Assembly (NCBI GenBank): GCA_022709525.1
Contig: JAKLIQ010000002.1
Coordinates: forward strand, 984 to 64,983
Length of the DNA stretch: 64,000 nt
Direction: 5' to 3'
DNA from: Candidatus Omnitrophota bacterium
GTDB lineage: Bacteria; Omnitrophota; Omnitrophia; Omnitrophales; Aquincolibacteriaceae
The translations under genes and the position numbers were made by a program. The first letter of the stretch is position 1, and the number at the start of each line of letters is the position of its first letter. This document shows, in pieces, positions 6,264-43,400 of the stretch. The notes beneath the pieces were generated by a model. That model was given only the letters and a program-made list of their open reading frames with translations, had not been told where the DNA came from and did not search any database.

Positions 6264-9200
6264 TTAAGCCGCTGTCTCGATCGACTCCTTCGCTTGGAAT
6301 GCGTTGTTAAATTCCTCGACGGCAACCGACCAGCCGCTCTTGCTATTCCGTTTGAGGAATGAGGACCCGGGCATATCTTCCAGATAGGTTTTCAAAAGTT
6401 CTGGATTTTTGGCGATCGCTTGCTGGGCGCTGCGGCTGAGTATCATATATTTGTAAAGCATATGCTGGACAATAAGCTTGACTACCTGTCTTGCCGCCGG
6501 ATCTGCCAATTTAAAATGATCAAGGTTGGAATTGCAGAGCAAAACCCCCAGCTCGCTAAAACCTATATCCTTGCTGGTGATACCAAACCATAATTCTCGA
6601 CTATCGGCGGTTATCTTGTTTGAAGCAAGCCGGTTCACGTCCTTGCCGGAATAGTTCAGCGGCGTGAAACGGTTTGTGACTTTGTGATAGCCGCGACCCG
6701 GCACATTCTCCTTCTCCTTGCCGTCATAAAAGACCACCAACTGGCGCAATTCCTCCAGCGACTCGATGATCCCCAGGATGTCGCTCGAAGTTCCGGGCGT
6801 GTGGTCCATAAGGATATTAATGGGCACGCCTTTCATTTTTGAGAGGAGTTCCGCGTTAGCCGCTACAAGCTGTTTTACGAGAGCGTTAAGTTTTGCGCGA
6901 TCGTACTGCGTCAGCTCAGCTTCTGCGGTAATTGCAACGGGGGCGGTGGTCAATTCGCCTGCGATGATCGTATTGAGACGGCTGAACTCTGCTGCGGTAT
7001 TGACTAGCCGCGCCTTATCTCCCAATCCGGTTTCAAACGCCGCCCAGGCATCCGGAATACCTAAAATGACCGCGTCGGCATTCGGCAGATTATTCAATAT
7101 TTCAACAAACTCTGCTATCGCGAGATTAAAAAGCGGGGCAAGGTTGCTGAAACCACGCTCCCCGCTCCGCTTTAATTGCGCCAGCACATTTTTTACTTCC
7201 GCGTCTGAAGGGTTCCTGCCAAGCGCCGCCAAAATTTGCGCAGAATCAGAACCCGTCAATAAAGTAAACGAATTGTCAGGACTCACTACTGTGCGAACCT
7301 CGGCCCGCTTAAAAGCCTGATTGAAAGCGCTCTCTCCCGCCAGGGTCTTTGTTGCGTCATTCCGGATCATTTCCAATCCTTCGACCATTTTGACAACAAA
7401 ATCATTCGGAAGCCGCTCTGGATCGGGATAACTCGATCGAGCCGTTTCCAGAAAATTCACTACACGCTCATCCAGAAAAGCGCGGTATTTCAGAAAGAAA
7501 GGAACAATGCCCGGCCTACGCCAATCCGACTCATCAAAAAACCTGTCCCATAGGATCTGCTTGGCTCGAGGGTCTTTTACAGATACCCCCCCATCAAGAT
7601 CTCCGCGCCTGAAAACGGGGATTCCATTCTCCCTTTCGCTGCTGCACCAAAAATTATGAACGAAAGAATCTTCAAAATAGAACCCGAGGATCTCGCCTTC
7701 TCTTATCGATCGGAACGCTTGGAGTAAAAACTCAAGGGAATAAAACGCATAGGATGTCTTTTCCGCCCCCGGTTCTTCCGGAGCTCTCAGAAAAAAATCC
7801 ATTATTGTGAACGCGCTTTTCGGAGGAACCCCGTACCTGTCCTCCAATCCTTCGAACGGTATAAGCTGAAATTCATCCAGAAAGTCGCTATCCCTGTAAT
7901 TGCTTACCGCGATAGGCGAAGTCCAATCCGAAATAAGCAAGGGATAAACATTTTCTGCATCCCGCTGGTCGTCCGCCGCTATATTGGACATTACCAAGTG
8001 GGGAATCTCTTTTTGATTTTTACCGATCATCTCATCCGCAGCGTCCAATTCGCTCTGGGTGGGATAGACTTTTATGGCAACGAGTTTTTCAGGAATTTGA
8101 TCCGAGCCCTGTCTCATTTGCATGGCCAACACGATCAGACTGCTGCCATCATATTTGGTCAGGCGTTGCAGCACTTCATAATACATCGAATCAAACTCGA
8201 CTTTTTTGCCCACTTCCGCCCACCCCGGAGACTTTCCATACGGTTTATATTCCCGGGCATTTCTTGGAATGTTCTGAATTACCTTTTCAAATCGTTCTCG
8301 CCACTTCATCCGCATCTCAGCGCGGACCCGAACGCCTTCCTTTGACTCCAGAACCCCCCTTTCGATAGCTGCTGGTTTTTCGAAAGATTCCAGATCCAAC
8401 CCCGCAACGTTCGGCAAAGTGATCTGGGTAGGGTCGGATATGCCGAGAATTCTGAGCAGATCCGCGACCGTTAAATCCCACAACTCCGGATTTTCTCCCG
8501 TCTTCTCCAAAATATCTCGCAGCAACTTTGCGGTAACTATGGTCTGCTCACGTTTTTCTGAAATCGAAACCGTACGAGCGTTATCCGGAATAATAAGGGC
8601 CTTTTTATAGCCGAAATCCAGCGTCGCAGAAACATACCCCCTATTCCATTCCCCCATTTGAGCCTTCCGGGCTAGATCACTATGCGAAGCGGTCAAAAAT
8701 CCCAAAGGTCTTACGGGGCTGACCGCGACCCGGAGGTCCCGCCCGTATTGAATATTCAAAAGAACATTTCTTTTTTTCACGCCGGGTTGAATATAATTTT
8801 TGAGGATCTCCGGCGCGTCTTCGGCGGACATGCCGCTAAAAAGTTTGTCCCCGAGCCACGACAGCGATTCTTCTTTAAAATACCTCTCCTCCGCCGCACG
8901 CGTTTCAGCGCGGGTTTTCGGGCGATCCGTCCGACGAATGGTGATGCGCCCCTTCGTGTCAATTTCTCCTTCGCCCAACAAATCTTCTGCTGCAAAATCT
9001 CCGCTCCTGATCGTTAATTTTCGGAGACCGTCCCTTTCGGGGCTCGAAACGATCAAGTTGATCCCGTAACCGCTCGTAACATCGCTAATGATCTCTCCCT
9101 GCTTATACTGCTTACTAAAACCGGAAATAATTGCGTCGCTAAAATCCGGCTCTTCGGAAGCGCCGTTCATAAATACATGAAAAACAGATCCCTCGCCGAT

Positions 9201-12200
9201 ACCCCGCTCTTGCAAACGACCTATGGCTGTCGCTATCTGTTGTCTTAGCTCCGCGTCAGAAATATATTCGCCTTTTTTACCCGGGAAGAAGTGAGCTGCT
9301 CCGATCCTTTCCCCGTCTTCTGTTTGGATAAGAACGAACACGCATTGCCCTCCCTGCAAAGCGCCGGATTGAAAAAGCTCTTTTTCAAAAACTCGCATCC
9401 TGTTTTCGCGTACCAAGGTCGGCAGATTTCTTTCAATCGCCTGACCGCTGCGAATATCATACATGGGATTATTTGCATAGCCGTCATCTCGGCGCTTTCC
9501 GGTAACGAGTTCGTATGCCAAGTCTTTGAGGGGCTCGATCCCTGTCGTTTTCTGATACCGAAACGCGGCAAAAATATCGAGCATCATCATTCCGAGAACC
9601 GCAAAAACAGCAACCCACCCCATTCTTGCGATCGCTTCTTTTCCTGATATCCGCAGTTCAGAGCGAAATTCCTGGCGCGAAACTCCGGATTCGGGCTTCG
9701 ACTCTCCGGACTTCAAAAATTGCGACCGCTTGCCTTTTAATTCTGGAAAAATTCTTTCAAGGTAGGGCCACGGATCACCAGGAGGAAAAACATAGAGATC
9801 ATAGTCGACGGAGGTGATCGGGGTGCCCGGAGGATACTCGCTTCGAAGGTCTGCTGGGCTAATACCGCCGCCCAAGCTGTCCGCGTCAGGATCGCCATCA
9901 AGGTCCAAATAAACATTTGCTACGTTCTTTCCTCGCGGCACTAACCAAAAAGTCGGAACATCCCGAGCGCGACCTTCGTTGACAAAACCAATCCCGTAGC
10001 GACCCAGCTTATAAGGCGTTTCGGACAAGAGCCCGCTTACGGTTTCAAGTGGTATCTCTTCCCATAGGCCGTCTTCGGTATTGATAATGATCTTATCGGT
10101 ATCATAAATTCCTGCACCAGGCCCGCCGGGACGGACAAACATGGAACTCGGCTGCCATGTTTTTAATGCTTCGCCAAGCCGAATACGGTCTGGGTCAAAC
10201 TTTGCTCCTGAAAAACCAATCCTTGGTGAAGCGGCCCGAACATTATATTTCACATTTATTTTTAAATAATCAAAACGTCCTTCCTTGTCTTTTTTGGATG
10301 GGCTAATGGTCGCTACAAAGCCATCCGTCTGGATCATGCCGTTGTCGTCAATAAAATCACCGGTCACAACAACGCTTCCCTGAAAACCGCGTCTGAATTT
10401 AAGGTTGTCGATCCTCCCTTTATGGTGATAATTGCCATCGCCATCCCAGTATCCCGGAAACGGAATAAAACTCATGCCCCATTCGACCAAGATCGTCTCG
10501 GTCCTTCCGTCTGGCGTCTTGACGGTCACGGGCATGAGCGTTGCGCGCCAGTAATCTGGCTTGATCGAAATAGATTGGAAATAGTCCATAAGCACTTGGA
10601 AATAAATTTGTACTTCCGAGGCCTCGCCGGCCTTTCCCAAATTCATCATAATGGGAGTACCGTCGGTATCGTCGGCGAGTTTAACAAGAGCGCCATCCTT
10701 ATGATACACTTGGCGTTCTTGAGCCATGCTTGGAGTGGGCAAAGCAACAGCGGCGCCCAGCATGACGCCCGCCAAAAGACTAATTAAATTTTTTCGAGAG
10801 AAAAATCCTCCGCGCGAAATCGGGCTTAGTCTTTCCCCTTGCCTAGCGACGGGCAGGCGCACTTCCGCACGGGATTTTTGATCGGCTTCGGCATTGAGGC
10901 GTATCGCCTCTTCGACGGCGCTTGGAGGTAATTGACCCGGATAGGCGTTGATCATGCCGGAGGAGGTCACTCCAAACACAACCACGCCATTTCCGTCTTC
11001 CCCATATCGTTCTGCATGATCAACAATATCGGGAACTCCTCCATAATAATCGGGAGCATCGGGATCCAGCGAACTTGTGTTATAGCGTGTTACGCTATTT
11101 GTATTTCGATCATAAACAAAAAACGCGTCGCCAAAAAATTCGGCGGTTTCAATCCGGGTTACATTTTCTTCGGCGACCCCATAATCAAACTCCTGCTGGA
11201 AATGGGTCGCATGAACCAATTCATGCAAAATGGTCCGGATAAATATTTCCCATGCTTCCGCCCGATCGCTCATGACCCAATCCATCGCGCCTTGATCAAC
11301 CGTTACGATTTGTCCGCCCTGGACGGCATCCCCGCCTGCTCCGCCCTCATCAGGTCTACCCTCCATCTTTGGACTTATAAAAAAATGATCCTTCCAGTTC
11401 TCGCCAAAAAGTAGGGTCTTTAATTCAGGATTCCTCCCATCGCTCGCCAAGGCCTGAAGCTCTTGCCATGCGGCTTCTATGATTCTCCATTCAGCTTCTG
11501 AGGGTTGACGATATCCCTGCGGCACTTTTACTGGCGATTTAGACCAGCCAACATTGCTTTGGGTTGTCTCACACCCTGCCCCTAAAAATCCTACGGCGGC
11601 TCCTGCCGAGGCTAAACCGACTATTTTCAAAAAGGCGCGACGGGATATTTTCTTGGAGCTAAGACCTGCGGCAATAACAGCGGCAAGACCGGCAGCCACC
11701 AAACCTCCCCGTGACGGCCCTACGCGCTTTTGATCCCGCGCAAGAAAACCCCCAAGTGCGGGAACTGCTTCGTAAAGATTTTCACCAGCCCTAATCTCCG
11801 CTCTGAATGGAAAATCGAACCGATCTAAGCCCTCACGATCTTTCCAACCAAATGCGGCAAAATCAACTTTGACACCACCCGCTTTGGCCTTGAGAAGAAA
11901 CTCATCGCGCGGAAGTTTTTGACCGGGAAAACCATTTGCAAAAGATTTCTGCATATTTTCAACATACAAGTTCTCGTGGATATATAAAACGCTTGCCGGT
12001 TTGTATTGATCTAAAAGATTGGAGAGTAACGCATAAACAGGACTTGAAACGTCTCCGGCATACAAATGATGTAATCCGGTTTCTTCCAATCCTATCATCA
12101 AATGGTTGCTCCCGGTCCTACGCTGACGATCTTCAACGAACTCCTCAAGCGAACCATAACCTAAATATTTAGCAACTCCCACGGTTCGTCGAAGTTGAAC

Positions 12201-14708
12201 TTTTAAAGTTTCTTGGACTGCCAGGTCTGTTTTTTTATCTTTGAAAATCTCTCCTGCGCGCACTTTTTCAGCGGTCAATTTAAGCACCGTTGAGGAAACA
12301 TAACGGACTTGCTGGTTTGCTTCTAGCGCAGGAAGCGCGCCCCAAATATGCTGCGCAGCGCCCTCGACAATAATGAGCGCGGGACCCGGATTAGCCCGAA
12401 GATGAGCGCTTACAGCACTTTCGATTTCAGCCCAACTTGTAATATCCCGTGAAATCGCGTTGGAGGGCTGGTTAGCCAAGGCCTCTTTGTAAGCTTCTTC
12501 GACTACTGGATCTTGCAGATCAAAAAGAGGCATTAAATCACTCAAAAACCCTTCTGCGCCTAATTGGCTTGTCAAATATTCCGCCCTTCTGTCCACGCTT
12601 GTTTTCTCCGAAGATTCATCACGAACCTTGGGCAACTCGGAAACCGGTTTTTCGATTGCTGGTGCAACAATGAGTGGCGCTACAACAGAAATCGCCCCTG
12701 TTGGCGCATAACCGAGGGGTATGCTTCTTGCTCCCGGCTCTAAGGGGCGCTGCGGAGGAATCATTGAAGGTTTGGCTTTGGAAACGTTATCTAAAAGCGC
12801 GGAGACGGTTTGGAGATTTAGTTCCTTTTTCGAAACCAACTCCCGGAGTCCCGTTCCGAATTCCTGGAGCTGCGCCTCGAAACGTTTCCAGATCCCGGCC
12901 AAGGATTCGTCGCGGAAGCGTTCGAGCTCTTTCTGGATCGCGGCGATGATCTCTTCTTTGCTTCTCTTCAACGGCGCTTGACCAAAACGTATTTGCGCGG
13001 GCAAAGCTAGGGCGTCGATATAACGGGTGTACTGCCCCACGTCGGCGATGGTTCCCTTTGCCGCAGCGTTGCGGATCAGTTGATCGCGCCAGGATTTTAG
13101 ATTTCTGTCGAGCCCGGCCAGAGGCAACTCCATCAAGAGTTTTTGCATCGCGGCGCGGGCGAACGCGTCATAAAGCGTCGCATTGGGCGACGGCTTATAC
13201 GAAACATCCCCTTTCATCACGCGCGCATAATTTTCGTAGCCCGTCAATGAATGGATCCGGGGCGTTATCACTAAATGCGAAACGCCGTTGGCCCGGAGGA
13301 TCTTTTTAAGCCCTTCCGTGTGGAAACCTCCGGCGACCATGACCGCGGTCTTCTGTCCCTCCTTGTTCATGAGAGAGGTGAGCCGGTCAAAAAATGCCCG
13401 GTCGCGGGCAAGCGCATGCTCATAAAACTCTAAAGCCGGTTTGACCTTCTCGCGAAAATCCCGATCGCCTAACAGCCCGGCGAAGCTCTCGGGATCCTCC
13501 TGATAGGCCTGGAGCTCCTGATGGGTCAGTTCCAACTTAACGAGATCTTCCAGGATGAAGAGGCGCTCATATTTTTTCGCCAGCTCCCGCTCTTCCGGCT
13601 TTTCTGCCAACGCGGCCATGCTCTCCGGAAGGTATTTCTGCAGTTCATCGAAAAGGCGGCTTCCCTTGATCTCGGAAAGCGTTTCCGTATGCCCGAGCAG
13701 TTTCCGCATCTGCGGGGTTAATTTCGGCCGGAACCCTTTCGATTCGCCGATCCGCACCATGTAAAGCAGGAATTGTCCGGCGCTTAATTTCCCCGTCGAG
13801 AACGCCTGATATTTTCCGTAGAAATTCATTTCCTCTTTGACGCCGAACTGGCGGACATACTTCATTTTGAATTCATTCGCCATCTCGCGGATCATGGGCT
13901 CGAGGGCTTTCTCTTTGCCGGAACGGTCATAGCCGACCGAACTCATAACCTTCGAAAGCTCGGCATAGCGGGACGATTTGGAAGGCCTCAACCCAAGCGC
14001 GTTCAAAGCGAGGAAAAGCTCCAGAACGGAGATGCGCTCGCTGCGGAAACCCTGCCACGCTTCCTGGAAATCGTTCAGCTTCTGCGAATAAACCGATCTG
14101 CGTTCACGATCGAGCTTCTCCTTAAACGATGCGAGACTCTTAAGCAAATCGTCCTTAACCGCCTGGACCTGCAAGTAAGCGCGGTAGTTCCGCTCATAGA
14201 GGTCCCAATTCTCGATACCGTAAAAATTATTTTCTTTTTCGCCGAGGATCGCGGCCATCTCGGGCCCTGTCAACTCAGCCTGTTCCAGATAACCCGTCAT
14301 GACCTTTTGCATGACCTTTGCGTCAGGGAACGCGCGGTAAAGCGTCGGGTCCAGCTTCTCCTTGCCGCCTTCCAAAGCAACGAGACGAACGCCCTGCTCC
14401 TTCTGGAGATATTCGATCAGCCGCTGAATGTTTTCCTGCGCGTCATTGACCGCGTGGGCGTCCTGAATGAGAATGACCGTCTTGTCGCTCGCCGGATCCC
14501 GGAACCTCGCCTGGATCTCGCCGAGAGTGTTCGGTATCGCGATTGCCGCGGTTTGCGACGCGGTCGCCGCAACGGATTGCGCAGCGCCCATATCCCCGCC
14601 GCTGGCAGGGACAGACCACGCGCAGTTCGTTGTCGCGAACACAAACGCGACCACGGCAGCGACTATTCGTCTCCCTTTGTTTTTTTGATACATAGTTTCC
14701 GTGTTCAT
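6264..14708 (-). CDS. Giant secreted or membrane-anchored multidomain protein of about 2815 aa. Paralog of the 8256-aa protein in its N-terminal domain. Contains an HExxH metalloprotease-like motif and internal signal-peptide-like segments.
   Basis: Uninterrupted 8.4 kb ORF. After a short leader, the N-terminus MNTETMYQKNKGRRIVAAVVAFVFATTNCAWSV is a signal peptide or TM anchor. The region around 13050-14600 encodes a domain with ...ILIQDAHAVNDAQENIQRLIEYL...VMVAGGFHTEGLKKILRANGVSHLVITPRI. This is clearly homologous to the N-terminus of the 31421..56191 protein (...VLHVQDAHINEEAQRNIANILRYF...IVTGGFHTPGIEKYLREKDISYIVVAPRI). ILHELVHATHF lies at about 11215-11240. Confidence 0.85.
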   Translation of the reverse strand: MNTETMYQKNKGRRIVAAVVAFVFATTNCAWSVPASGGDMGAAQSVAATASQTAAIAIPNTLGEIQARFRDPASDKTVILIQDAHAVNDAQENIQRLIEYLQKEQGVRLVALEGGKEKLDPTLYRAFPDAKVMQKVMTGYLEQAELTGPEMAAILGEKENNFYGIENWDLYERNYRAYLQVQAVKDDLLKSLASFKEKLDRERRSVYSQKLNDFQEAWQGFRSERISVLELFLALNALGLRPSKSSRYAELSKVMSSVGYDRSGKEKALEPMIREMANEFKMKYVRQFGVKEEMNFYGKYQAFSTGKLSAGQFLLYMVRIGESKGFRPKLTPQMRKLLGHTETLSEIKGSRLFDELQKYLPESMAALAEKPEERELAKKYERLFILEDLVKLELTHQELQAYQEDPESFAGLLGDRDFREKVKPALEFYEHALARDRAFFDRLTSLMNKEGQKTAVMVAGGFHTEGLKKILRANGVSHLVITPRIHSLTGYENYARVMKGDVSYKPSPNATLYDAFARAAMQKLLMELPLAGLDRNLKSWRDQLIRNAAAKGTIADVGQYTRYIDALALPAQIRFGQAPLKRSKEEIIAAIQKELERFRDESLAGIWKRFEAQLQEFGTGLRELVSKKELNLQTVSALLDNVSKAKPSMIPPQRPLEPGARSIPLGYAPTGAISVVAPLIVAPAIEKPVSELPKVRDESSEKTSVDRRAEYLTSQLGAEGFLSDLMPLFDLQDPVVEEAYKEALANQPSNAISRDITSWAEIESAVSAHLRANPGPALIIVEGAAQHIWGALPALEANQQVRYVSSTVLKLTAEKVRAGEIFKDKKTDLAVQETLKVQLRRTVGVAKYLGYGSLEEFVEDRQRRTGSNHLMIGLEETGLHHLYAGDVSSPVYALLSNLLDQYKPASVLYIHENLYVENMQKSFANGFPGQKLPRDEFLLKAKAGGVKVDFAAFGWKDREGLDRFDFPFRAEIRAGENLYEAVPALGGFLARDQKRVGPSRGGLVAAGLAAVIAAGLSSKKISRRAFLKIVGLASAGAAVGFLGAGCETTQSNVGWSKSPVKVPQGYRQPSEAEWRIIEAAWQELQALASDGRNPELKTLLFGENWKDHFFISPKMEGRPDEGGAGGDAVQGGQIVTVDQGAMDWVMSDRAEAWEIFIRTILHELVHATHFQQEFDYGVAEENVTRIETAEFFGDAFFVYDRNTNSVTRYNTSSLDPDAPDYYGGVPDIVDHAERYGEDGNGVVVFGVTSSGMINAYPGQLPPSAVEEAIRLNAEADQKSRAEVRLPVARQGERLSPISRGGFFSRKNLISLLAGVMLGAAVALPTPSMAQERQVYHKDGALVKLADDTDGTPIMMNLGKAGEASEVQIYFQVLMDYFQSISIKPDYWRATLMPVTVKTPDGRTETILVEWGMSFIPFPGYWDGDGNYHHKGRIDNLKFRRGFQGSVVVTGDFIDDNGMIQTDGFVATISPSKKDKEGRFDYLKINVKYNVRAASPRIGFSGAKFDPDRIRLGEALKTWQPSSMFVRPGGPGAGIYDTDKIIINTEDGLWEEIPLETVSGLLSETPYKLGRYGIGFVNEGRARDVPTFWLVPRGKNVANVYLDLDGDPDADSLGGGISPADLRSEYPPGTPITSVDYDLYVFPPGDPWPYLERIFPELKGKRSQFLKSGESKPESGVSRQEFRSELRISGKEAIARMGWVAVFAVLGMMMLDIFAAFRYQKTTGIEPLKDLAYELVTGKRRDDGYANNPMYDIRSGQAIERNLPTLVRENRMRVFEKELFQSGALQGGQCVFVLIQTEDGERIGAAHFFPGKKGEYISDAELRQQIATAIGRLQERGIGEGSVFHVFMNGASEEPDFSDAIISGFSKQYKQGEIISDVTSGYGINLIVSSPERDGLRKLTIRSGDFAAEDLLGEGEIDTKGRITIRRTDRPKTRAETRAAEERYFKEESLSWLGDKLFSGMSAEDAPEILKNYIQPGVKKRNVLLNIQYGRDLRVAVSPVRPLGFLTASHSDLARKAQMGEWNRGYVSATLDFGYKKALIIPDNARTVSISEKREQTIVTAKLLRDILEKTGENPELWDLTVADLLRILGISDPTQITLPNVAGLDLESFEKPAAIERGVLESKEGVRVRAEMRMKWRERFEKVIQNIPRNAREYKPYGKSPGWAEVGKKVEFDSMYYEVLQRLTKYDGSSLIVLAMQMRQGSDQIPEKLVAIKVYPTQSELDAADEMIGKNQKEIPHLVMSNIAADDQRDAENVYPLLISDWTSPIAVSNYRDSDFLDEFQLIPFEGLEDRYGVPPKSAFTIMDFFLRAPEEPGAEKTSYAFYSLEFLLQAFRSIREGEILGFYFEDSFVHNFWCSSERENGIPVFRRGDLDGGVSVKDPRAKQILWDRFFDESDWRRPGIVPFFLKYRAFLDERVVNFLETARSSYPDPERLPNDFVVKMVEGLEMIRNDATKTLAGESAFNQAFKRAEVRTVVSPDNSFTLLTGSDSAQILAALGRNPSDAEVKNVLAQLKRSGERGFSNLAPLFNLAIAEFVEILNNLPNADAVILGIPDAWAAFETGLGDKARLVNTAAEFSRLNTIIAGELTTAPVAITAEAELTQYDRAKLNALVKQLVAANAELLSKMKGVPINILMDHTPGTSSDILGIIESLEELRQLVVFYDGKEKENVPGRGYHKVTNRFTPLNYSGKDVNRLASNKITADSRELWFGITSKDIGFSELGVLLCNSNLDHFKLADPAARQVVKLIVQHMLYKYMILSRSAQQAIAKNPELLKTYLEDMPGSSFLKRNSKSGWSVAVEEFNNAFQAKESIETAA

Positions 14709-14932: not shown

Positions 14933-14944
14933 AGAGGGCATAAA

Positions 14945-31420: not shown

Positions 31421-34400
31421 TTACGCCGACACTGCGAAGGCCTGGGCGGCCTCAAAGGAGGCTTTGAGGATGCTGTCAATGCTCACTCGAGTTGACCACT
31501 TAAGTGCGCGCCGAACTTTAGCGATCACTACAAATCCTTCCAGTAATGCCGCGGCTTCGTTCTCCATGGAGGAAGCGTCAGCATCCAGCTGGATAACACT
31601 GAGTTTGGCATTTTCATCCCGACGAATACCCATTTTGGCCATCTTGGATTCGACAACCGCGTCAAGGGCATCATCGGACGCAACGATCACTTCAATAGCT
31701 GCGCCAAAATCTTGCTTCGCCAGATCGGCATCGGCTTCTGATGCTACGACAACGGCAACCGTAACGCCTGTGGCTTTCTTGTCTAAGATCTTTTGAATCT
31801 CGCTCGAATCATATTTTTCCTGCCGCAATAAATACTCGCCGCGATCCCTAATATCGGCGACCGGCGTCACAATAATACCTTGACTGCGCAAAGCATCCAC
31901 AACACTCATGGTAAATTTCGCTTCCAATCCTTCGGCTTTAACGCTGGCAAGAAGATCGGGCAATGTCTCGTATTGGAACCTGATCGCTTGAGTCGAAGCG
32001 ACTGCCCGTAACGCGGCTTCCATAGCTGCCCGCTGAGCACCCGCAACTGCCGGCACCTTCGAGGCTTCGGTTACCATGTCCGGAATTTCTTTTTTCTGGA
32101 TCTCAGGAACCTCTTCCACCTCGCGAAGCTCAGCTCTCGATACGGATTCAAACTGTACGGATTCAAACCGTTGAATTTCAGCAGCAAGACGAATAGCATC
32201 AAGTTCTTGGTTTAACCGGGCAATGTTCGGTGCAAGTTGAGCGATTTTGTCCTCATCACCTTGAACCATGGCATTATCCATATCAATATTCAGCCGCTGG
32301 ATCTCTGTCTCGAGTTTCGTAATGTTCAGTTCGGATTGCACCCGCGCCAGATCGCGTTGGGCTTGAGCTAATTCCTGCTGGCGTTTCGCGATCTCCTTGC
32401 TTAAGCGGATGGATTCAGCGGTCTGGCTTGAGATCCTGCTTCTGGCACTCGTCATATCTGCGATCAAGGAACTTAGTTCCTCGATAAGATTTTTGTACTC
32501 TTTGACCTCAAAGGTAAGCGTCTCAAGCGAAGTGACCGGCTCGACCCCCGTCCTCGATTCTGAACGCGCAATGCTCTTCAAGATCGCTTCGGCTCGAGGA
32601 AGCGCTTTCAAATAATTGGCAAATTCGGCTTTCGCTTCGTTGACGATCTCTTCGCCATTTTCCGGCACGGTCACCTTGACACTCCCCTGGCCTTTTGCGA
32701 TCACATCCTTTAGCCCCTGGATCTCGTTACCGCCGTTCAATTTGAACTGCCCGGAAAACTCTTCCGGAAGGCCCGCGATATAAACTCCTAAGCTGATTAG
32801 TTCCCGATCGCTAAGATCGCTCACCTTCAGATCGTAAGTTTTGAAAGCCGTGACATCCAACATCACGCCTAAACGCCCTTTTTGATTCCAGATCGCCTGA
32901 GCGTTGGCTTTGGCGCGAAGAAGCAGATACGGAGCGGTTACAAGCGCAACGACCGTGGGAGGCTTGGCAAAATTGGTTTTATCCACCACAAGCTTCTCGG
33001 TATTCTCCATATTTTCGAGCGTGGTTTTTGAAGGAACCGCTTCCCGGCTCATGGCGGATAACGGAACGCCTTCTTGTTGCAAAATATAAGCCATAATATC
33101 CACCTCGGTATTCCAAGATTTGACCGCTTCCTCAATCTTGGCGTCCTTAGTCCGGTAGTAAACGAACGCGGCTTCCTTAAGAGGCTGATACCCTCTCCCT
33201 TCGCGGCCACCCGTCAAAATGATCGGGGCCTTCTTCTCAGATTTCAGCCAATAATCAGCAAAAAGCGCGTAGGCCCTGACATCCGGCGCACCGAGCAAAA
33301 CAAAGACATCGGCCGGCCATTGATCAAAAACATCGCCTTGCGAAAGCATATCGACCAATTCCTGGAGTTTATCCGTAAATTGTTTCCTGATTTCCGCCAA
33401 GGTTTTTGGCTCTGAAACTTTGGCGTTTTTCATGGCTTCGCGGATCATAACTTCAGCGGCATCGATATTCTGCCAAAACACTATTGGCTGTATCTTTTTC
33501 TTAATACGCGATGAGGGTTGAAAAACATAATGACCCTTTTTATCAAGTGCTTGAACAGGAGCCGGAATATTTTCAGGATTCACAACCGCACGGAAATGCG
33601 TCATAAGCGCCATGAGATACTGCAACCGGGCATCATCCGTCGATGCATTACTAATAAAAACAGCGAAGGCCGAAGAGAACGCGCGCGGATTTGGACTCAT
33701 AAGCGCGGCTTCGATGGCCTGATATTCTTCAAGTTGTGCAGCCAATTCCGGATGCTCCTGTTTCACCTTCGCGATCTCCGCGCTCAGGACGGCATAACTA
33801 GAAATGCCGACACTCCGATTCAACCAATCCCCAAGCGTCTTGACCGGCTGGACGGGAGGGGCGACTTTTTCGACTGGTAGAGGCGCCGGTCTTGTAGCCT
33901 CTTCTCTCGCCTTTTGCGTAGCTTCAGCGGCTTTGCGGATTTTTTCTTTTTCAGCGGCAATTCTAGCTTCCGCGATTATGTCCTCAGCAGCTTTTTGAGA
34001 TGTTTTGTTTTGTTCGTTTAAAGCGGCGATTTTGGCGTCAAGTTGTTCATTCTTCGGGATATTCCCGAGAGTTTCATTAAGCTTTCGGATAACCGAACTC
34101 ATCTCCGCATTCACCTTCGCCAATTCAGACTGCAGGGCTTCCAATGACATCCCGGCCATATCTTTCGCACCTCGCACTTCCGACCTGCCTTCCCGGATCC
34201 TCTTAGCGATTTCTTCAGCTAACAACTTTTGGCGCTCGGCTAAAGCGTCGAGTTTCTTCCCAACTTGCTCGACCGCTTGCATAAGTTTGGCTTGAGCCTC
34301 TTTTTCAACTTCTGGTATTTGAACTAGCTGTTCTTGAACAACAGTTTCGACCACAGGCGCTAGCGGCGGCTCTGGGCCTCGCTCAATTTCTCGAGGATTT

Positions 34401-37400
34401 TCATCGGTATCTCGCTTTAGAGCAATGGGCTCTCCCCACAGTTTATGAAAAAGCCAAAATCCAAATCCCACAAGACTGAAAACGAGCATGCCTACAACCA
34501 AAACCGTCTGCGGTAACATAAAAGCAGGTGTATTTCCCTGTAAAACAGCTGAAAATAGCGGCGGAGCACCATCAGAAAGCATTTGTGAAGAACCTGCAAT
34601 GAACAACGAACCCTTAATGATTTTGGCCATTATGATGGCAAGGATATGCTGGGTGGTCCAATGATAAAAAACAAGCCCTGTGGCCCCCATAATTGCTACG
34701 CCAAGACCCCAAGTTAGCCATTGAGCCGCTCTTTGAGGCAAAAGATAGCCGCCTAAGAAATTTCCTAATGGCGCCAAGGCAAAACCGAGAATCAAAGTAC
34801 TTGCCAAAAGATACCAAGCGGTTGGAATATACAATGCTAAAAATGGAGCGGCAAAACCTATTACGGTTAACGTTAATAGGGAAAAAACCAACTGACTGCC
34901 ATGCAAACGGTAATCAAATAAAGAAAAACGTCCCTTTTCGGCCTTATCATGCTCAGCACTTAAATGTTTATTAATTCCAAACAGGCGATTCACAAAATCA
35001 ACAAGATTTGCTATCGGTTGATATATAAAACTCATGAAAAAAGCTGCGATGTAAAGTTTTATGGCAACCCAAGAACGCTTACCATAGCCTAAGCGATCAT
35101 AGGCAGTGCTTAGCTGCGAAGATTTGTAGGTTATAGTTCCATCAAATTGTTCTCCTAAGATATCTTTTTGAATCCATTGATTCTTCTCTGCCGCTTTGCC
35201 AATGTTTTGCACTATGATTCCTGAGTATAAACCTAGGGAGCTGATAACTATGCCTAGCAATAAACCGATCGTGCCACCCGCCATAGCAATAACAGGTACA
35301 GAAACAAACGAAAAACAGATTTTAGCACCTAAAATAAGCAGGAAAGCCAAAGAAACCGTAAGACCTCTACGCACATCTTCAAGTTTTACATACTGACGGG
35401 CAGCTTGTATTTCATCTTGTGAAAGTGCCGGATTCGCAGTAGCAACAGTACCATATTTATGAAAACGTCTTAGTACGATAAGATATTGAACAACCTCATA
35501 GATTCCCGTAACACGTGAGACCAAACTAAAACCCGTATATACTTTTTCAGCGATGCCAATGGGAACATCTTTAACAACCCACTTGACCGTGTCTAAGCCT
35601 CGCGTGATAAACCAGTCTCCAATTTTCAGAATAAACTTTGGCAACTTTCGTTCAACAGAGCTTGACAAGACCGGTTGTACTGGCCTATTCAAACGATTTA
35701 AAAGTGCTCCGACAAAAGTCATACCGCAAACAACAAAAAGCGTAATCGCAGTTTGGAACATAGCAGCATGAACACCCCCAAGCGCAAATAAACCAGCGAT
35801 AGTGGCTTGAGCTAATGCGATAATAAGCGTAACAGCCCAAAAATCTTTATTGAAAAGACCATGGATTTCAAAATCATTCAGGAATCTTCCGCCATGCGTC
35901 AGAGGAAAAGATTTGCCGATAAATCTCTCATATAACGCGATGATATCGTTAATAAATTTCCACTTACTCTCTTGCTCATCTTGCTTGACTAAATTCTTTG
36001 TTCTATCATCGATTCCCATCGCTTTTTCATCGGCTCGCTTCATCCGTACCGTCTTGCCCGCATAATTTGAAATCTGAATATTGGCAAGATCTTGCCAATA
36101 TTGAACCGGCATAACATCCAAGGCCTTACGACTAGCTGGGAACGGGCGTCCGAGAAACGTTAGATCGAGAACAAAATAGAAATAAATACCAAGTTGCAAT
36201 TGAAGCAGAATTTTTTTGAGACCAGTACTTGTCGTCGCTCTCTCTTGAATGCCTTTATAACTCTCAATTCGTGTGAGAAGCGTCGGCATATACTGTTTTA
36301 ATTTTTTAACATCATCCCACGTAGCGCTAACAATTTCATCTTCACCGTTAACTTTTGTTGGAATACCGTTTCCGGAATTCATCAACTGATCAAGCTGCTG
36401 TTGCGTCAAGTTACCCCCACGCTCTTTTAGCTCTTGCCCCAAAATCCTGAAAAGAATCCCCGAAAGAAGAATGGTTCGGGTATAGTAAGCTCCGTAAGGT
36501 AATCCTTTTTGCGGCTTGGACATTTCGGCTGACGATTCGGTTCTCGCAGTATATTTCCCACCGGCGCGATCGACGCCGGCAACTAGCGCATTTGCTTCCT
36601 GAAGCGAAGCATAGGATCGATGAGCAAAAACTCCGGACTCATAGTGAACCGTCGTTTTTGATTCACGATAGTCTTGTACGCCTTGTGCTAAGCCGATGTC
36701 TGGACGCAACATAAAGGCTTTCGCCTGATATCGGGTTGTTCCTGAAGTAACGTAATTGCCGCCATCGGCGGTTGTTGAAATAATGACTTTTGCTTTAAAT
36801 TTCCTTTCTTCGGCCGATCGTGTTTCGCTTCTTGTCGGTAAAAATTGACCTAATTGTGGCAGATTTCGTCTCACGGCTTCCCCATACGAAACAAAAGGTT
36901 CATCTTCTGTGGCAATGCCGGCAAAGAAAGGTTCGCTTGAAAACGGCAGGTAAAGCTCAAGAATATCTTTCGTTTCTCCGGACGCTATCATTTCAGCTTT
37001 TGCCTTTTCAGTGGCATATTTAGGCCCAACTAAGAAAATTTTCCCGCCAAGCTCCACAGGGTAGACAATGCCTTCGTCAGGATTGGAAAGCTCTCCTACG
37101 CGTTTGCCAGGAGTACCATCTTCGCCATAACCAGTGAACGCCCCCCATTTGATTACGTTATGTTCCGGTTTTCGACCACCCGGCAGATAAGCCAGGACAA
37201 CAATTTCGCTGCCTGGATGATAAACTCCTTTTTCATCGGTATAGGATAAAACACTCCAATATGGCTTCATGGCTCTTTGTAATTCGGCAAAAACACTCTC
37301 TAACAAAACGTTGCTATTATCGTCCATTGACATTTCGCGACGCTCTTGTTGCGTCCTCGCTTTCTGATATTTGGTAATTTCAGGACCGTTCACTAAAAGA

Positions 37401-40400
37401 ACGCTCCGTTTTTGCTTCAAAAGATTGCCAAGAACGTTGCGCGCGGCTGCTTTCACCGCATCAATCATATCATCTTCTACGCTGCTTATTTTAACCGGAC
37501 ACACATCGGCTACCAATTGGCCTTCTTCGGCAAATGGCACCCTTTCGCCGTTCAGCCCTGTTTGATAAACATGGTCATTGATATCAAAAATATTCAATTG
37601 ACGCCGCAAGCTCGCCTTTTCTTCGGTAACATCCACTCCACCTTGTTCTCTTTCGTAGATGCGATGTATTTCGTTATCAATTTTGTCGAGCTCACTTTCC
37701 TCAAGTTCAGGATGGCCGCCTTGCACCTGACTTACCTCCACAAGACCGCCCTGTCTATCGACGGAGGGCAAGGTAAGAATAACTAGGAGAACCATTGCTG
37801 CAATAGGAACCAATGCGATGGGATATGCCAAGAAAAACGTTCCAAAACCAGCGCTAAGACTTACATGCGCAAATAATTTAAATCCAACGATGGTAAGCGC
37901 GCCCATTGCAAATGCCTGGACTACGCCTTTCCAACGCGCTGGTGCGATAAACGTAGGCAAATAACTCAAATTGTCATACAAAATTTTATAAAGAAGAGCC
38001 ACGCTAAAAACCACCAAAGGGTTAAAAGCAACACTATAGGGTTGAATGGTTGCCAAAAATAAAAGTACGTTGGTCCATGACAAGCTACTCATTACAAATT
38101 TTGCCAAAGCAATACGAAAATCACCCAAGCGTCGTGCGTAGGCCGATTGCCTTTCTGCAGCATCTCTTTTATTGAACAGCGGATAGGGATCAATAAACAA
38201 GTAGCGGATAGCCCGAATTAAAAAGGCAATGGCCGCCAGTATAATTCCAAGAAGAAAGACGCGCTGAAATGGACGCGTTTTATTGTCAAACCGGAGTATT
38301 TTGGAAAGCCACGTCTTTTCACTTTCGCTGACAGGAGAATAATGATCGGCAAACTGAGTGTCAAGTCGGCGAGAAGCAGCGGCTAAACTCGAATTGCCAT
38401 AATCATCGAGCAGTAAAATACCCTGCTCGTCATAGTTGGGGAACAAAATATCAAGAACTCCGATACGTTTTGCAGGATCTGGATTCTGTAAATCTGCCAA
38501 AACAAGAAGTGTTAAAGGAGAAATGAGAGACGGCTTGGGAAGATCCTGCTGCTGAAAACCTTCATGCTGTCCTTGATAATAGTGGTTAATGAGTCGTTGA
38601 TAGTTTTGCATCAATCGGTCATTAAACTCGTAAAGATCCACGGGTTCCAGGCCGCCCTTACGCTTCATAAGAAATTGAATACGTTCTAACAGTTCTCGAA
38701 GCATCTTTTCTTTTAAGGTCGGATCGGCTTTCCATTTTTTATATAAAATGCCTTCTAGCGTGTCTTTACCTTCGAAAGCATTGCGAGCATATTGACGCGC
38801 ATCTTTACTTTGTGGAGTAACGCCTTCGGGCAAGAAGCTATAAGGGTTAACGGTGGATTTTTCACCAAAAATCCATCCCAGCGTATTCTGCATAACGGTT
38901 TGAATTTCGGGATTTTGCCATTCGGATGCCGGCACACTGGCCGCAATACCTAAATCCAGAAGACCATCTGCGGTATACAACATCCTAAAGAAATCAGGTC
39001 GACTGCCCGAATTTACTTTGTGGTGAGCCTGATAAAGCTCCCAAGCTAAATCAAACCAACTATCGACTTTTGCCTGATCAATGTCTTTATTAAAGGCATC
39101 GCTTGAAATCCTGGTAATTTCACTTTCCCGAGTCTTCGCGGTATCAAAAAGCGTAAAACTCTCACCGGCTTGTTCGCGAATCTGTTTTTCAATATTATTG
39201 AAATGATCGGAAACGCTTTTTTCCAAAACTTGAAGTTTTTCAAAAGCTTCTATTTCACGGTAAATAGCATCGAGCTTGTCAGCGCCCCCCGCTCTATCAA
39301 GAACCTGAAGCGCCCAATTATCAACCTTAGCGATTGTGCTAACGTCGCTTAAATCTAATTTAACGTTTTGGATCTTTTCTATAGCCGCCACAATATGGGG
39401 ACGAATATAACCTCGCAACAAAACAACTTCGCCAGCAGAATAACCCTGGCTTAGCATTTGATCGGCAAACATCTTGATTTGACGCAAATCTAGTTTAATC
39501 GGATTCCCTTTAAACAATGTCATCTGATTTAATGCTTCGATGGCAGCTTTAATTTCAGCAATTTTCTCCTTGTGAATCGCGGCATAGTCAACTTCGCCTT
39601 GAGTAAGACGTTTACTAATCTCGTCTAAGCGCTGTTCTCTTGCGCCGCGAAGAGCTTTTCGGTTTTTTGCAATTTCAACATCACGAGCTGCCAATTGCCC
39701 AGATTCAAACTTTTCTTTGCGTGCTTTTTCTGCTAAATATGTTTTTATATAGTTATTGGCCCATTGCTCAATGAAATGAGACATGTCAGCATCGACATCT
39801 TTATGCCGGGCACTTAGCTTTTCGGGGGTGCTGATATTATAAAAAGTCGTTTGCAGAAAAATCTCATAGGCTCGTCGCATTTCGATCATGAATTCATAAC
39901 GCGCCGCTGAAGTCTCAGCAAAGCTGAGCCCGGCTCCTTTCATCATGACATCGATTTGACTAAATTTTTCTGCCCACCAAAGTGACTGTAAAGGTTTGCG
40001 GTGATCACTCGCAGGCAGTTCGTCAACGGGAAGGTCTTGTTGAAAGATTAGTTTATACATTTTACGAATAGCTCGCAAATCATCGAGATTGACGGTTTCG
40101 CCACTTTTAGGAAAAACACCTTCGCCGAGACCGCGGAGATCCGCATCAAAGAAAAGACTTGTTCTAAATTCCCGCTCTAGAATTTTGCCAAGGGTAGGAT
40201 GAATGACGGGTTCACCCTTCCGTGCATATTTTATAAAACCATCGAGCGTTTCGTAAGGAACAAAATAGTCGTGATTTTTATAAATCAATGCTTCAATTAA
40301 CGCGGCGTCTTGAACCCAATAATAAACCATCTGAAGAACGCCTTCTGGAGTCTTCGGCGCATATTGGTAATCCCACTGTTGCATTTCGAGTAAACGAGAT

Positions 40401-43400
40401 AACATGCCAATAATTTTGTCGCGAGGCATCTGAAAGCTATTTTGTGTTGCCCAATCTTTATCCCGAGGAATTCCGAGTCGAGTCAATTCATTCGACAACA
40501 GCTGAGGATAATCCACGGCAATTTCCTGATAGGGATTATTTTTGAGCTTTTTTCCTTCGAGAGCAGCGGAAAATAATCCATCGAGTTTTAGAAGTTGTGC
40601 GTAAAATTCGCGGGCAGTTTTTCCGTCTTTTTGTTCTTTTGAAAAACCCTCACGGATCATAACGATTCTTGAATAAGCTGCCAAATCACCTGTTTGTAAG
40701 CGTTTAGGCATCCCATCATCACCAACGTGGTACAACATATGTGCCGCTTGTAAATACATTTCGATTTGTGTACGCTGCAAAATATCGTTAAGGGTTACTT
40801 CGGCATTCGTTGCAGAAATCTCACGATTACGAATAAGCTCGGCAAGCCATGCTTTGGCCTGATCCTCACTGTACATGTCGGCTTTTAGGCCCGGTATTCC
40901 ATCGGTTCCTTCTATAAAATTGCGAATTCGTTTCGCCTCACCAAGACTCATCCAAAATGGTTTTTCGCTGGGATTAGAAAGATAGCCGTCCAATTCTCTG
41001 ATAAGGTTCTCTCCTGCCGTGTTGCGGGAATCTAAAACAAAACGAACCCAACGATAATATTGTTCTGCGGTAAGCCCAGGTAACTTTGTTTTAAGTTCTT
41101 GTAAAACCTCATCTTCATATTTAAGGTCTTCGCGCTTAACCAAAATGTTATTGTTTTTAGCTGCTTGATAGATTGTTTCCCGTCGTGTCAAAATTTGTTT
41201 TATTTCATCAAGAACTTGTTGCTGAGCCTTAGCTTCGGTCTTAGGCACCTCTTTCCCAAGCTCTCCTTTTTTCATACTCAACGCCAATTCACGAGCTAAT
41301 GCAATAACATCGCCTTGCCGTGTTCGCAAATCTTTTGAGGTATAAAGACGGCTTCGGTCAGTGTTAATTAAATATTCATTAATCCGCTTTACACCTTCAT
41401 TAGAAAGAATATTGTGAAAGAGCATGTGGATGAGAGGTAAATCAACAGCATTTCCTTCTTTATCAAAAAATTCAGCCCATGTGTTGTCCTCTAAACCCAC
41501 TTCACGGGCAATGGCAATTAACCTCCCAATTCTATTTTCGGGGTCTTCATTTAAATTCCACTTAATAGATTCATTAATTTTAAAAGCTATTTTTAGAAGC
41601 TGCTCGGTTTTTACCAGTCGTTCTAAAACATCAACTCTCATCCATTCTTCACGTTCCTCTACTTCATAGGAAGCATACCCGGAACCATAAAGAATGGTCG
41701 GCAAAATACCCATGGCGCGGCCGATTTCGACACCGATGCGGACTTCTTCGATATTTTCCGCGTAACGGGTTTCGAGCTCCGCTCGATAACTTTTCTTAAA
41801 GTAATCGTGTACCGTTTTGTCTAGAGCAAGGCGTTCCTCCGGCGAGGCTTTTTGATAATTCTCGCGAAGACTTTTTCCCTCGCCGGATTGAAAGAATAGC
41901 GGATAGTGTTTGAGAAGGTCTTCCGCAGACATCGTATCAAAGGAACCGTTCAGTTCGCCGCTATCAAAACGCTTCAGGAGGAGTTTTGCTTGACGCGCAA
42001 TGTAAGCGCCGGGATATTTAAGAATTTCGTCGTCTGTTAAAGGCGTGTAGTCCTTCATGGCATTCCGAAGACGAGCGATGATGTAACCGATCAAAGGCCA
42101 CTGTTCGGCCGGGGCTCCGACGCCGCGCAAGGCGGCGATGGTCGCCTGAATATTAGCTTCTTCTTTGCGCTGAGTGGCATTGGATTGATAAGGAGTAAGA
42201 GTTCCATTCTTATCAACCGTCCCGCGAAAATAGGAGTAAGCGAGTTGGCCCATAAAATAATCAGGGTCGCGATCGCCCTTGCTGATATTGGCATCAAAAA
42301 TCGAGCCCCATGTTTTATTTAAATTAAACGTAGGAAGCATAAGCTCCACTTTTCCACGGAAAGAGTCATCTTTGAGGGCTTCTTCTACCGTTTTCCCATA
42401 CCGCTTCGCATAAAAAGCCCAAGCAAAAATAGTTCCAAATTCATTGGGGCTGTTGATGCTATACGGCAGGAAATCTTTCCGATAAAATTGATCTAAACTT
42501 TCTTTCGCATCTTTTAAGGACGCCGCGAGTTCCCTGACCCATTGCTGGGCATCTTCGCGGGTCAAAAGATTTAAAGTTGTTCTCATGCTTGTTTGGTTAT
42601 AAATACGATTTGCAAATTGCGTTTGATAATCCCAAAAACCTACCCTTTCAAAATCAAATCCCTTTTTCCCTTTTGCCGGATCTCCCGATACCAAAGCATC
42701 CTGAACGTCAGCCGGAGCCGCATACGAAGTCCTCCACGGTATTCCCCAAGAGCGGTCGAGCGTTTCGCCTGGATTCAGCAATCCAGCGGTAATATTTTTT
42801 TCATCATCAAACTTCAAACCCGCAACTAAGGGCTGGGTATTCGTTTCTGAAAATTGTCCGTTTGCGGTTGTAAAGCGCTTAAAACGATCCCCCACGCGAC
42901 CTATCACATTGCCTACCACGTTTTGCAGATAAGGATCCGATGGCATATTCAAAGCGTTCATTAAAAGCACCGCATCATCCGCCAAATCTGGATAAAGCAA
43001 GCGGCTTCCGTCAATTTGTTCCACCGTATGGGTAAACTTCATACGACTAAATTCCGAAAGCGAGACTTGTTCGGGGGCACTGACAGCCGGCTTAGCGGGT
43101 TCTGCCGGCAAAGAACCTGCAAATTCTTCTTCCAGTGGAGTTACCGCTTTTTGAGTGGCCGACACAGCTTCTCTGCTGAGTTTGTGTTGCTGTTCAAACC
43201 GCGCTAACTGCATTACGACCGAAAGATGCGTTCGGTAGGCAAAGTGAAACGCCAAATTCGCGCTCTGCACTTGATAGGTCAATGACGCAATGGAATCAAG
43301 ACCTTCGTTATCTGTGGCTTGATTTTCTTTGACGGCTTTTTGCCATGCCTGAGTAAGCATTGTAACCGATTCCTGTCGGTTAAGAGCTTCTTGGGCCGTA

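Follow-up and report, generated by a model that had tools for sequence, protein, structure and literature searches.

Two giant Omnitrophota proteins with a predicted TIKI/TraB-like N-terminal domain and a recurrent junction peptide as candidate modular polyproteins

Do the giant proteins of Omnitrophota work as whole chains, or are they cut into smaller units? We took up this question for a stretch of 64,000 nucleotides from Candidatus Omnitrophota (contig JAKLIQ010000002.1 of assembly GCA_022709525.1; hereafter the window, to whose first letter all positions refer), which encodes two giant proteins, g2 and g1 (lengths in amino acids, aa):

6264..14708, minus strand: g2, 2814 aa from the ATG at 14708, with the stop codon at 6264-6266; the open reading frame opens upstream at a GTG at 14783
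31421..56191, minus strand: g1, a giant open reading frame of 8256 aa whose N-terminal domain (N-domain) is a paralogue of that of g2

An identical protein to g2 lies on contig DAOOSW010000019.1 of GCA_035389965.1, where NCBI annotates the same start as the g2 ATG. The best-supported reading, to which we give slightly better than even chances, is that g1 and g2 are exported modular polyproteins with marked junctions, because a strict charged pentapeptide at the junctions (R-[SA]-E-x-R) is found together with cassette modularity and co-occurs exclusively with a hydrolase-type head that keeps its catalytic residues. Such a protein would be built of an N-terminal signal or anchor helix, a hydrolase-superfamily domain of ~450-500 aa with a helical insert, unrelated cassettes that vary in number and measure about 200-400 aa each, and a conserved C-terminal module with a [SA][LVAM]-COOH ending. 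In the clade of g1 and g2, short linkers with R-[SA]-E-x-R would separate the cassettes.

The shared N-terminal domain

BLASTP with composition-based statistics of the first ~700 aa of both proteins aligned g2 aa 14-485 with g1 aa 14-516 (133/517 identities or 26%, 44% positives, E = 5e-38). The original prediction, made from the DNA letters and their translations, had called the two proteins paralogous in their N-terminal domains, and this alignment bears it out; the homology stands, while the shared length comes to about 500 residues rather than the ~550 claimed. All the blocks quoted in that prediction are present and keep their order, LIQDAHAVNDAQENIQRLIEYL...ALEGG in g2 with HVQDAHINEEAQRNIANILRYF...NLEGA in g1, and AGGFHTEGLKKILR...VITPRI in g2 with TGGFHTPGIEKYLR...VVAPRI in g1. 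The likeness is more than compositional, as 20 columns are invariant in an alignment of 14 homologues (21-47% identical to g2) and the order of the motifs is conserved. Homology of g1 and g2, and their membership in one family, are in our view nearly certain. When full-length g2 was compared with g1 by BLASTP, no further significant homology appeared outside the N-terminal stretch, and the only other match of note was a junction peptide of 14 residues, TRAETRAAEERYF in g2 against TRSETRSAEERKF in g1. The nearest relatives of g2 have 44-47% identity in the N-domain, and g1 has a long collinear relative (P0067, E down to 1e-118). Thus, g1 and g2 are ancient, distant paralogues inside a multi-copy family. 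The features of the N-domain are:

13209..14543, minus strand: N-domain of g2 (aa 56-500), predicted TIKI/TraB/erythromycin-esterase-like alpha/beta core with a helical insert
54599..56014, minus strand: N-domain of g1 (aa 60-531), predicted TIKI/TraB-like, with LHVQDAHIN at 55907-55933 and VTGGFHTPG at 54701-54727
14448..14474, minus strand: ILIQDAHAV, first active-site motif of g2 (D83-x-H85), invariant, after a beta strand, matching the E3900/H3902 pattern of RRSP
14364..14378, minus strand: ALEGG with the invariant E113 of g2, 28 residues past H85, from the alignment and the comparison with RRSP
13311..13337, minus strand: VAGGFHTEG, second (GxxH) motif of g2 with H463; the invariant R435 lies 28 residues upstream
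12729..13031, minus strand: helical extension of g2 (aa 560-660), found only in the motif-bearing subfamily on comparison of relatives

The invariant columns include Q82, D83, H85, A90, Q91, E113, G148, G164, E166, Y171, N174, Y429, R435, G460, G461, F462, H463 and P483. An AlphaFold2 model on the same alignment (predicted local distance difference test 78.5, predicted template modelling score 0.68) placed the elements in the order beta strand, D-x-H, helix, beta strand ending at E113, further helix and strand, all-helical insert (about aa 168-450), beta strand, GGFH, helix and final beta strand. In this model the insert, of roughly 260-280 aa, splits the core, and the core itself has the parallel beta-sheet flanked by helices that defines the alpha/beta fold of the superfamily. 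The structures listed for the domain were the TraB family protein 8bqs_DQ (9.7), HopBA1 (9.3), Ere-like 2rad (9.2), RRSP (9.1), ChaN (8.8), Ere-like 2qgm (8.8) and EreC (8.8).

In RRSP, the catalytic 2His/2Glu set consists of E3900, H3902, E3930 and H4030, and R4001 is also essential; the His-Glu pair of Bcr135 is H85/E113 (PMC6254334). At the sequence level, D83, H85, E113, R435 and H463 of g2 reproduce the RRSP pattern E3900, H3902, E3930, R4001 and H4030 with equal spacing (H to E +28; R to H +28 or +29), the first acidic residue being Asp in g2 and Glu in RRSP. His-85 and Glu-113 of g2 also correspond to the Bcr135 pair. We consider it likely that the N-domain adopts a TIKI-type fold with the catalytic pattern of the superfamily, as predicted from the model and the active-site residues, and it would then be a putative hydrolase. 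The earlier description of the domain as an export or anchoring module of unknown function therefore undersells it, since the core is predicted to be of the TIKI/TraB/erythromycin-esterase hydrolase type and its catalytic residues are invariant.

A profile of the N-domain built from the 14-homologue alignment was searched against 1.84 billion representative proteins clustered at 50% identity, and matched 10,170 clusters at E<=1e-3 and 7,169 at E<=1e-30. Among the best 150 matches, which are 519-7853 aa long, the domain begins between residues 2 and 63 with a single exception, in agreement with the earlier claim that it is family-specific and N-terminal. With one degenerate pattern, run over one genome per species, at least 483 loci were confirmed. 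Of the 80 best, nearly every record with a name is Candidatus Omnitrophota, and two or three loci come from the same genome in several cases. A word-indexed search returned 18 homologues, all hypothetical proteins, the named ones mostly from Omnitrophota/Omnitrophica metagenome-assembled genomes and one labelled Verrucomicrobiae. Several homologues are complete proteins of ~520-530 aa that consist of the N-domain alone. Pfam and NCBIfam have no model for this family, and nothing above threshold was found for g2, g1 or their pieces in Pfam, NCBIfam and the PDB sequences. The N-domain is thus the head of a very large uncatalogued family, almost only of Omnitrophota.

Junction peptides, cassettes and the C-terminal module

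The pentapeptide R-[SA]-E-x-R occurs six times in g2 and five times in g1, against 0.17 and 0.29 copies expected from shuffling, and is absent from the 18 ordinary genes of the window (8,423 aa):

11790..11804, minus strand: g2 motif 1, RAEIR (aa 969-973)
10857..10871, minus strand: g2 motif 2, RAEVR (aa 1280-1284)
9651..9665, minus strand: g2 motif 3, RSELR (aa 1682-1686)
8898..8912, minus strand: g2 motif 4, RAETR (aa 1933-1937), in the context TRAETRAAEERYF, matching TRSETRSAEERKF of g1
8310..8324, minus strand: g2 motif 5, RAEMR (aa 2129-2133)
7293..7307, minus strand: g2 motif 6, RAEVR (aa 2468-2472), directly before the conserved C-terminal module
54041..54055, minus strand: g1, RSEAR (aa 713)
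36818..36832, minus strand: g1, RSETR (aa 6454)
34172..34186, minus strand: g1, RSEVR (aa 7336)
32552..32566, minus strand: g1, RSESR (aa 7876)
32123..32137, minus strand: g1, RAELR (aa 8019)

An example of a junction peptide is DQKSRAEVRLPVAR. The original prediction had not noted this motif. The peptides TRAETRAAEERYF (8898-8936) and TRSETRSAEERKF (36794-36832) are near-identical over 13-14 residues, and the cassettes that follow them are unrelated.

Among 31 clade members, we counted 196 copies of RSE.R (2.5 expected) and 61 of RAE.R (3.8 expected), and an unbiased gapped k-mer scan of these 31 relatives returned R-[SA]-E-x-R as its top multi-copy pattern. The enrichment of the motif is 35-78-fold over these counts and those in the window, and about 78-fold in the clade of g1 and g2. 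The motif-bearing proteins are those whose N-domains are nearest to g1 and g2, and in related loci every fully assessable motif-rich open reading frame also has the N-domain. Across the 11 copies of the window, different synonymous codons are used for Arg, Ser/Ala and Glu, so selection acts on the peptide; a nucleotide-level signal, such as a Shine-Dalgarno-like internal start or a recombination site, was ruled out for the same reason. An equivalent motif in other clades was looked for and rejected, as the same scan over 93 of their proteins found nothing comparable. The spacing between motifs has a median of 286 aa (interquartile range 166-409), with 14% of the spacings below 60 aa.

The motif coincides with the ends of homologous segments. 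The comparison was an all-against-all BLASTP of the motif-rich proteins with the N-domain excluded. A motif lies no more than 10 aa from the start of the aligned segment in 42% of cases (random expectation 5.7%), and a motif or the C-terminus lies equally close to the segment's end in 64% (random expectation 6.7%). Only 24% of the segments cross a motif, compared with 60% at random. In 48 of 50 aligned segments, the position of the cassette differs between the two proteins. Residues 995-1342 of P0144, for example, correspond to 1720-2070 of P0145, with motifs at 995/1333 and 1720/2061, and residues 3127-3388 of P0155 correspond to 4689-4962 of P0161, with motifs at 3129/3383 and 4691/4957. Cassettes have been shuffled between relatives with the motifs as borders, and that R-[SA]-E-x-R marks cassette borders in general is very likely. 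Doubled or overlapping motifs (RSETRRSEAR, RAETRSELR) are seen in P0145 (aa 2419-2428), P0124 (aa 1178-1186) and P0085 (aa 5411-5423); these and the short spacings are as expected if each inserted cassette carried its own flanking motif.

A border need not be a cutting site. The motif may instead be a structural or recombination-tolerant linker, and the protein may work uncleaved as one membrane-tethered multi-domain chain, in which the internal signal-like stretches are ordinary start-transfer or stop-transfer helices. This rival is a serious one, although we think it rather improbable. Within ±10 residues of the motif, the share of hydrophobic residues is 0.22, down from 0.33, as expected for a short linker, and short, less hydrophobic linkers are what the uncleaved chain would have. 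The doubled motifs resemble joins of cassettes each bringing a motif, and recent surveys, in the part of Nielsen & Lui 2026 considered here, treat the long proteins of Omnitrophota as single chains with a signal peptide and transmembrane helices. On the other hand, a passive linker need not fix three charged positions across about 260 instances while the codons vary, and the motif-rich open reading frames that can be assessed all carry the hydrolase domain with intact catalytic residues.

Between the N-domain and the C-terminal module, the content of the cassettes is diverse. Pfam domains of relatives each lie within one cassette (methyltransferase, APH-type kinase, HATPase_c), and PGM/PMM and cupin domains occur in other clades. 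The cassettes of g2 have no Pfam match. A word-indexed search of 5.8 billion proteins found one 93%-identical fragment only for the 1505-aa middle of g2, and one near-identical fragment only for its C-terminal module, so that the cargo of g2 is effectively an orphan at the sensitivity of such a search. The HExxH motif of g2 lies in this cargo:

11211..11225, minus strand: HELVH (HExxH) of g2 cassette 2 (aa 1162-1166), motif-level evidence

The original prediction had contrasted a protease-like module in g2 with an ATPase and transmembrane machine in g1, both as C-terminal cargo. The cargo is indeed divergent, with the HExxH motif in g2 and weak SecA-like ATPase matches plus transmembrane clusters in g1. 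The protease-like module, however, comes down to HExxH and sub-threshold Pfam/NCBIfam matches (E 0.065-0.083), and the cargo sits not at the C-terminus but between the N-domain and the conserved C-terminal module and ending. In g1, aa ~1000-1900 (window about 50500-53190) contain a Walker-A sequence, AVTGAGKT, with weak matches to SecA_DEAD (E 0.013) and P-loop_SecA (E 0.031), and three clusters of transmembrane segments lie at aa ~1880-2310, 5970-6130 and 6780-7240. These features fit the SecA-like modules that have been reported in giants of Omnitrophota. Many members of the motif-less clades (P0022, P0032, P0048, P0074, P0126 and others) have a conserved small HExxH module right after the N-domain (...LQAHID...HELAHLDI.N, aa ~760-810).

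The other end of these proteins is also conserved:

6267..7292, minus strand: C-terminal module of g2 (aa 2473-2814), Rossmann-like alpha/beta core, ending FQAKESIETAA-COOH
31424..31456, minus strand: ending of g1, FEAAQAFAVSA-COOH, of the family-wide [SA][LVAM] type

The g2 module is homologous to the C-termini of P0145, P0109, P0121 and P0155. Among 166 family sequences, 101 end in [SA][LVAM]-COOH (types WSV, RSL, xAA including KAA, and VSA), and this ending spans C-terminal modules of which some have no detectable homology to each other. Sequences without it are mostly below 2,000 aa and are N-domain-only proteins or, probably, fragments. In g2 (6267-6299), g1 (31424-31456) and relatives from P0006 to P0163, a conserved C-terminal helix finishes in [SA][LVAM]-COOH. 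The ending could act in sorting, or be recognized by the N-domain or by a protease that binds the tail. A single universal C-terminal domain was unsupported, as jackhmmer divides the modules into several groups. The hhalign links were 96% for g2 and P0161 and weak for P0116 and P0048 (48%) and for P0048 and P0014 (30%), and the C-terminal module of g1 is not demonstrably related to that of g2; the one general feature is the terminal [SA][LVAM] ending. One complete protein of 964 aa (L016) consists of an N-domain 40% identical to that of g2 and a g2-type C-terminal module, with zero cassettes. Such a form, in which both ends are present without any cassette, suggests that the giants became large as cassettes were inserted between head and tail, both of them conserved.

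Two family genes in tandem, both with the N-domain, were seen on another Omnitrophota contig (L022, nt 2444-8131 and 9818-21640). Each has 5-6 junction motifs in the available sequence; the upstream copy has the C-terminal ending, and GGFHE in place of GGFHT.

Targeting-like segments, processing and its alternatives

In the proposed polyprotein, the N-terminal signal would drive export or membrane insertion, the R-[SA]-E-x-R linkers would serve as cutting sites that yield separate modules, and some of the released modules would bring their own signal-peptide-like or anchor-like start. The relevant segments of g2 are:

14610..14666, minus strand: N-terminal signal/anchor helix IVAAVVAFVFATTNCAWSV (aa 15-33), preceded by K9, K11, R13 and R14; topology read by eye
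11571..11708, minus strand: internal hydrophobic hairpin (aa 1001-1046) with the Tat-signal/lipobox-like stretch SRRAFLKIVGLASAGAAVGFLGAGC (aa 1022-1046, 11571-11645), ~50 aa past motif 1
10722..10796, minus strand: Sec-signal-peptide-like stretch RKNLISLLAGVMLGAAVALPTPSMA (aa 1305-1329), ending in SMA, 21 aa past motif 2; read by eye
9561..9623, minus strand: transmembrane/anchor helix (aa 1696-1716), 10 aa past motif 3

Since the hydrophobic helix of g2 has Lys/Arg upstream and stand-alone N-domain homologues begin with classical signal peptides, we infer that the N-domain lies outside the cytoplasm. Targeting-like starts follow motifs 1, 2 and 3 of g2; that at SRRAFLKIVGLASAGAAVGFLGAGC is sub-threshold for Pfam TAT_signal (E 0.019) and for TIGR01409 (15.6 bits with a cut-off of 16.7). 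In an uncleaved chain, the signal peptide of cassette 3, which has normal polarity and comes after a segment predicted to be outside, would have the wrong orientation. Because a normally oriented signal peptide follows a segment predicted to be extracellular, separate polypeptides make most sense for g2. Proteolytic processing at R-[SA]-E-x-R, taken as a claim of its own, falls a little short of an even chance.

The N-terminal TIKI-like hydrolase would be the most obvious candidate for the processing enzyme, but that it has this role is unlikely. The fullest form of the proposal, in which a TIKI-like protease, acting in cis or via paralogues in trans, releases independently targeted modules at an R-[SA]-E-x-R code, is tentative and on balance doubtful. 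The released modules would then be secreted, lipid-anchored or delivered into prey or host cells.

Another enzyme could cut the motif: an HExxH cassette within these proteins or, as in gingipain polyproteins, a separate protease specific for arginine. In that case the substrates of the N-domain could be esters, components of the prey or host envelope, or the conserved C-terminal ending. The N-domain has a much wider distribution than the motif and also occurs as N-domain-only proteins, HExxH modules recur (at aa 1162 of g2, and as a conserved HELAHLD near aa 770-810 in other clades), and the [SA][LVAM]-COOH ending co-occurs with the N-domain across clades whose C-terminal modules are not detectably related. 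However, no dedicated protease gene adjoins g1 or g2, whose neighbours are housekeeping genes, and some motif-bearing proteins are without HExxH. We regard this, too, as a serious rival, if not a likely one.

Several observations weigh against the processed polyprotein. Family-wide, hydrophobic signal-like segments follow 11 of 120 motifs and precede 3 of 120, with 5.9% at random (p 0.17), and the lack of significant enrichment after the motif favours the uncleaved chain; the idea that signal or transmembrane segments generally trail the motif was therefore dropped, being anecdotal in g2 and a few relatives. The N-domain is found in thousands of proteins of motif-less clades and stands alone in proteins of ~520 aa, so its general role cannot be the cutting of R-[SA]-E-x-R. 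It is also predicted to be extracytoplasmic, yet many cassettes of relatives are enzymes that require ATP or S-adenosylmethionine. Cleavage itself is proposed from sequence evidence.

The remaining points concern the fold and its activity. Sequence profiles (Pfam, NCBIfam and a PDB profile search) did not reach the thresholds for TraB, ChaN or Ere. At the GGFH motif, Pfam gave sub-threshold matches to the ChaN family Cofac_haem_bdg (PF04187, E 0.054, 13.9 bits with a cut-off of 27.7) and to Erythro_esteras (PF05139, E 0.12). Foldseek of the N-domain against the PDB had no significant match (Bcr135 at rank 6, E 0.28), because the helical insert dominates the comparison. The superfamily is therefore assigned by predicted fold and active-site pattern and not by sequence-model membership. 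ChaN and PMT are non-catalytic members of the fold (PMC6254334), and the N-domain might likewise be without catalytic activity and bind a ligand or anchor the protein, comparable to ChaN, which binds haem, or to the inactive PMT C1/C2 domain; it would then serve only as the export or anchor head that the original prediction proposed. The existence of non-enzymatic members in the superfamily (PMC6254334) and the Foldseek result speak for this explanation. Nevertheless, all five catalytic-type residues are invariant in the 14 homologues at 21-47% identity to g2, and PMT is without that motif (PMC6254334), so we hold a non-catalytic N-domain to be very improbable.

The housekeeping neighbours of g1 and g2 include PFOR, transaldolase-PGI, HflX, MiaA, ArgRS, NadE and thiolase. 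Between the two giants lie these genes:

20267-21073, minus strand: peptidoglycan amidase gene (LysM + Amidase_2)
21180-24065, minus strand: fused transaldolase-phosphoglucose isomerase gene (961 aa)

The G+C content is 0.42-0.47 within g1 (window 34000-48000) and 0.52-0.56 in the flanking housekeeping genes; the low value in g1 could come from transmembrane-rich sequence composition or from acquired cassettes.

Comparison with known systems

The N-domain has the same D/E-x-H, E, R, H pattern, with the spacing of RRSP and Bcr135, as the superfamily that holds TIKI/TraB/PrgY/GumN, the erythromycin esterases (EreA/B/C, Bcr135/136), ChaN, RRSP and HopBA1. TIKI and PrgY are membrane-tethered and outward-facing, and the N-domain is predicted to be so as well. 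It differs from the superfamily by the insert of 260-280 aa, by Asp as the first acid, by Pfam and NCBIfam matches that stay sub-threshold, by an activity that is so far predicted from its residues, and by its fusion to the head of multi-kilodalton modular proteins. We place it in the known TIKI/TraB/Ere superfamily as a family that is new and uncatalogued. More than 10,000 clusters at 50% identity would thereby be linked to a superfamily of hydrolases, among them the site-specific endopeptidases TIKI and RRSP.

Published giants of the same phylum, the Archaeovorin/Dockerin type and the 'multi-enzyme' long proteins, are membrane-associated and tiled with unrelated enzyme domains (methyltransferase, HATPase, PGM/PMM, SecA-like), a layout that our giants and their relatives may share. 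They are larger, however, at least 10 thousand aa in Nielsen & Lui 2026 (bioRxiv 10.64898/2026.06.07.730766) and tens of thousands in West-Roberts et al. 2023 (bioRxiv 10.1101/2023.11.21.568195), as given in the parts of both texts considered here, to which our further statements on them refer. In comparison with the Archaeovorin/Dockerin type, g2 and g1 have only 2814 and 8256 aa, and Pfam finds no C39, S8 or dockerin/TSP3 domain in them. 'Multi-enzyme' content is described by Nielsen & Lui 2026 for Omnitrophota proteins of at least 10 thousand aa; relatives of our giants carry methyltransferase, APH, HATPase_c, PGM/PMM and cupin domains, whereas g2 has no Pfam domain and both g1 and g2 are below 10 thousand aa.

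West-Roberts et al. 2023 suspected that Omnitrophota giants are cleaved, with cleavage points unknown, and the considered portion of the Omnitrophota giant-protein literature proposes C39 or S8 peptidases for the cleavage. In those same portions, neither West-Roberts et al. 2023 nor Nielsen & Lui 2026 mentions the TIKI-like N-domain, the junction motif or the C-terminal ending, and the words cleavage, motif and linker are absent from the latter. Among the papers ranked highest in a loose literature search, none joined Omnitrophota with TraB, TIKI or erythromycin esterase. Within the literature searched, the junction motif, the TIKI-like head and the C-terminal ending thus appear to be undescribed. 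The defined junction peptide makes the question of whole or cut-up giants testable for one large branch of Omnitrophota, and it divides the giants into cassette-sized units, each of which can be modelled, expressed or sought in proteomes singly; one proteomic dataset, PRIDE PXD025008, exists for V. archaeovorus (cited in PMC12583861). If R-[SA]-E-x-R is a processing code, it would give the first residue-level cleavage map for Omnitrophota giants.

In gingipain/HagA and viral polyproteins, one open reading frame yields several units separated by short, Arg-rich conserved sites, and their processing is experimentally established. The giants have a similar site-separated layout, with a conserved short site at module junctions that is both enriched and coincident with the ends of aligned segments. 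They have no relation to these polyproteins in sequence or domains, and in the giants the cleavage is a prediction.

A parallel in architecture is offered by the MARTX toxins, which have the same conserved ends with shuffled variable cassettes between them and a hydrolase domain in the same chain. The cassettes of our relatives are, likewise, enzymes that would need a cytoplasm to function (kinase, methyltransferase, HATPase). MARTX effector cassettes are freed by a built-in protease, while the secretion, delivery and processing of the giants are putative. Pfam finds neither RTX repeats nor a C80 cysteine protease domain in g2 and g1, and, unlike MARTX, their junctions carry the defined R-[SA]-E-x-R peptide; the likeness is an analogy and not membership. 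A two-module ancestor of N-domain and C-terminal module would offer a simple model for growth into a giant by cassette insertion, and, if the processing code holds, the conserved N-terminal head and C-terminal tail may be seen by analogy as a cassette-carrying delivery chassis comparable to the MARTX toxins.

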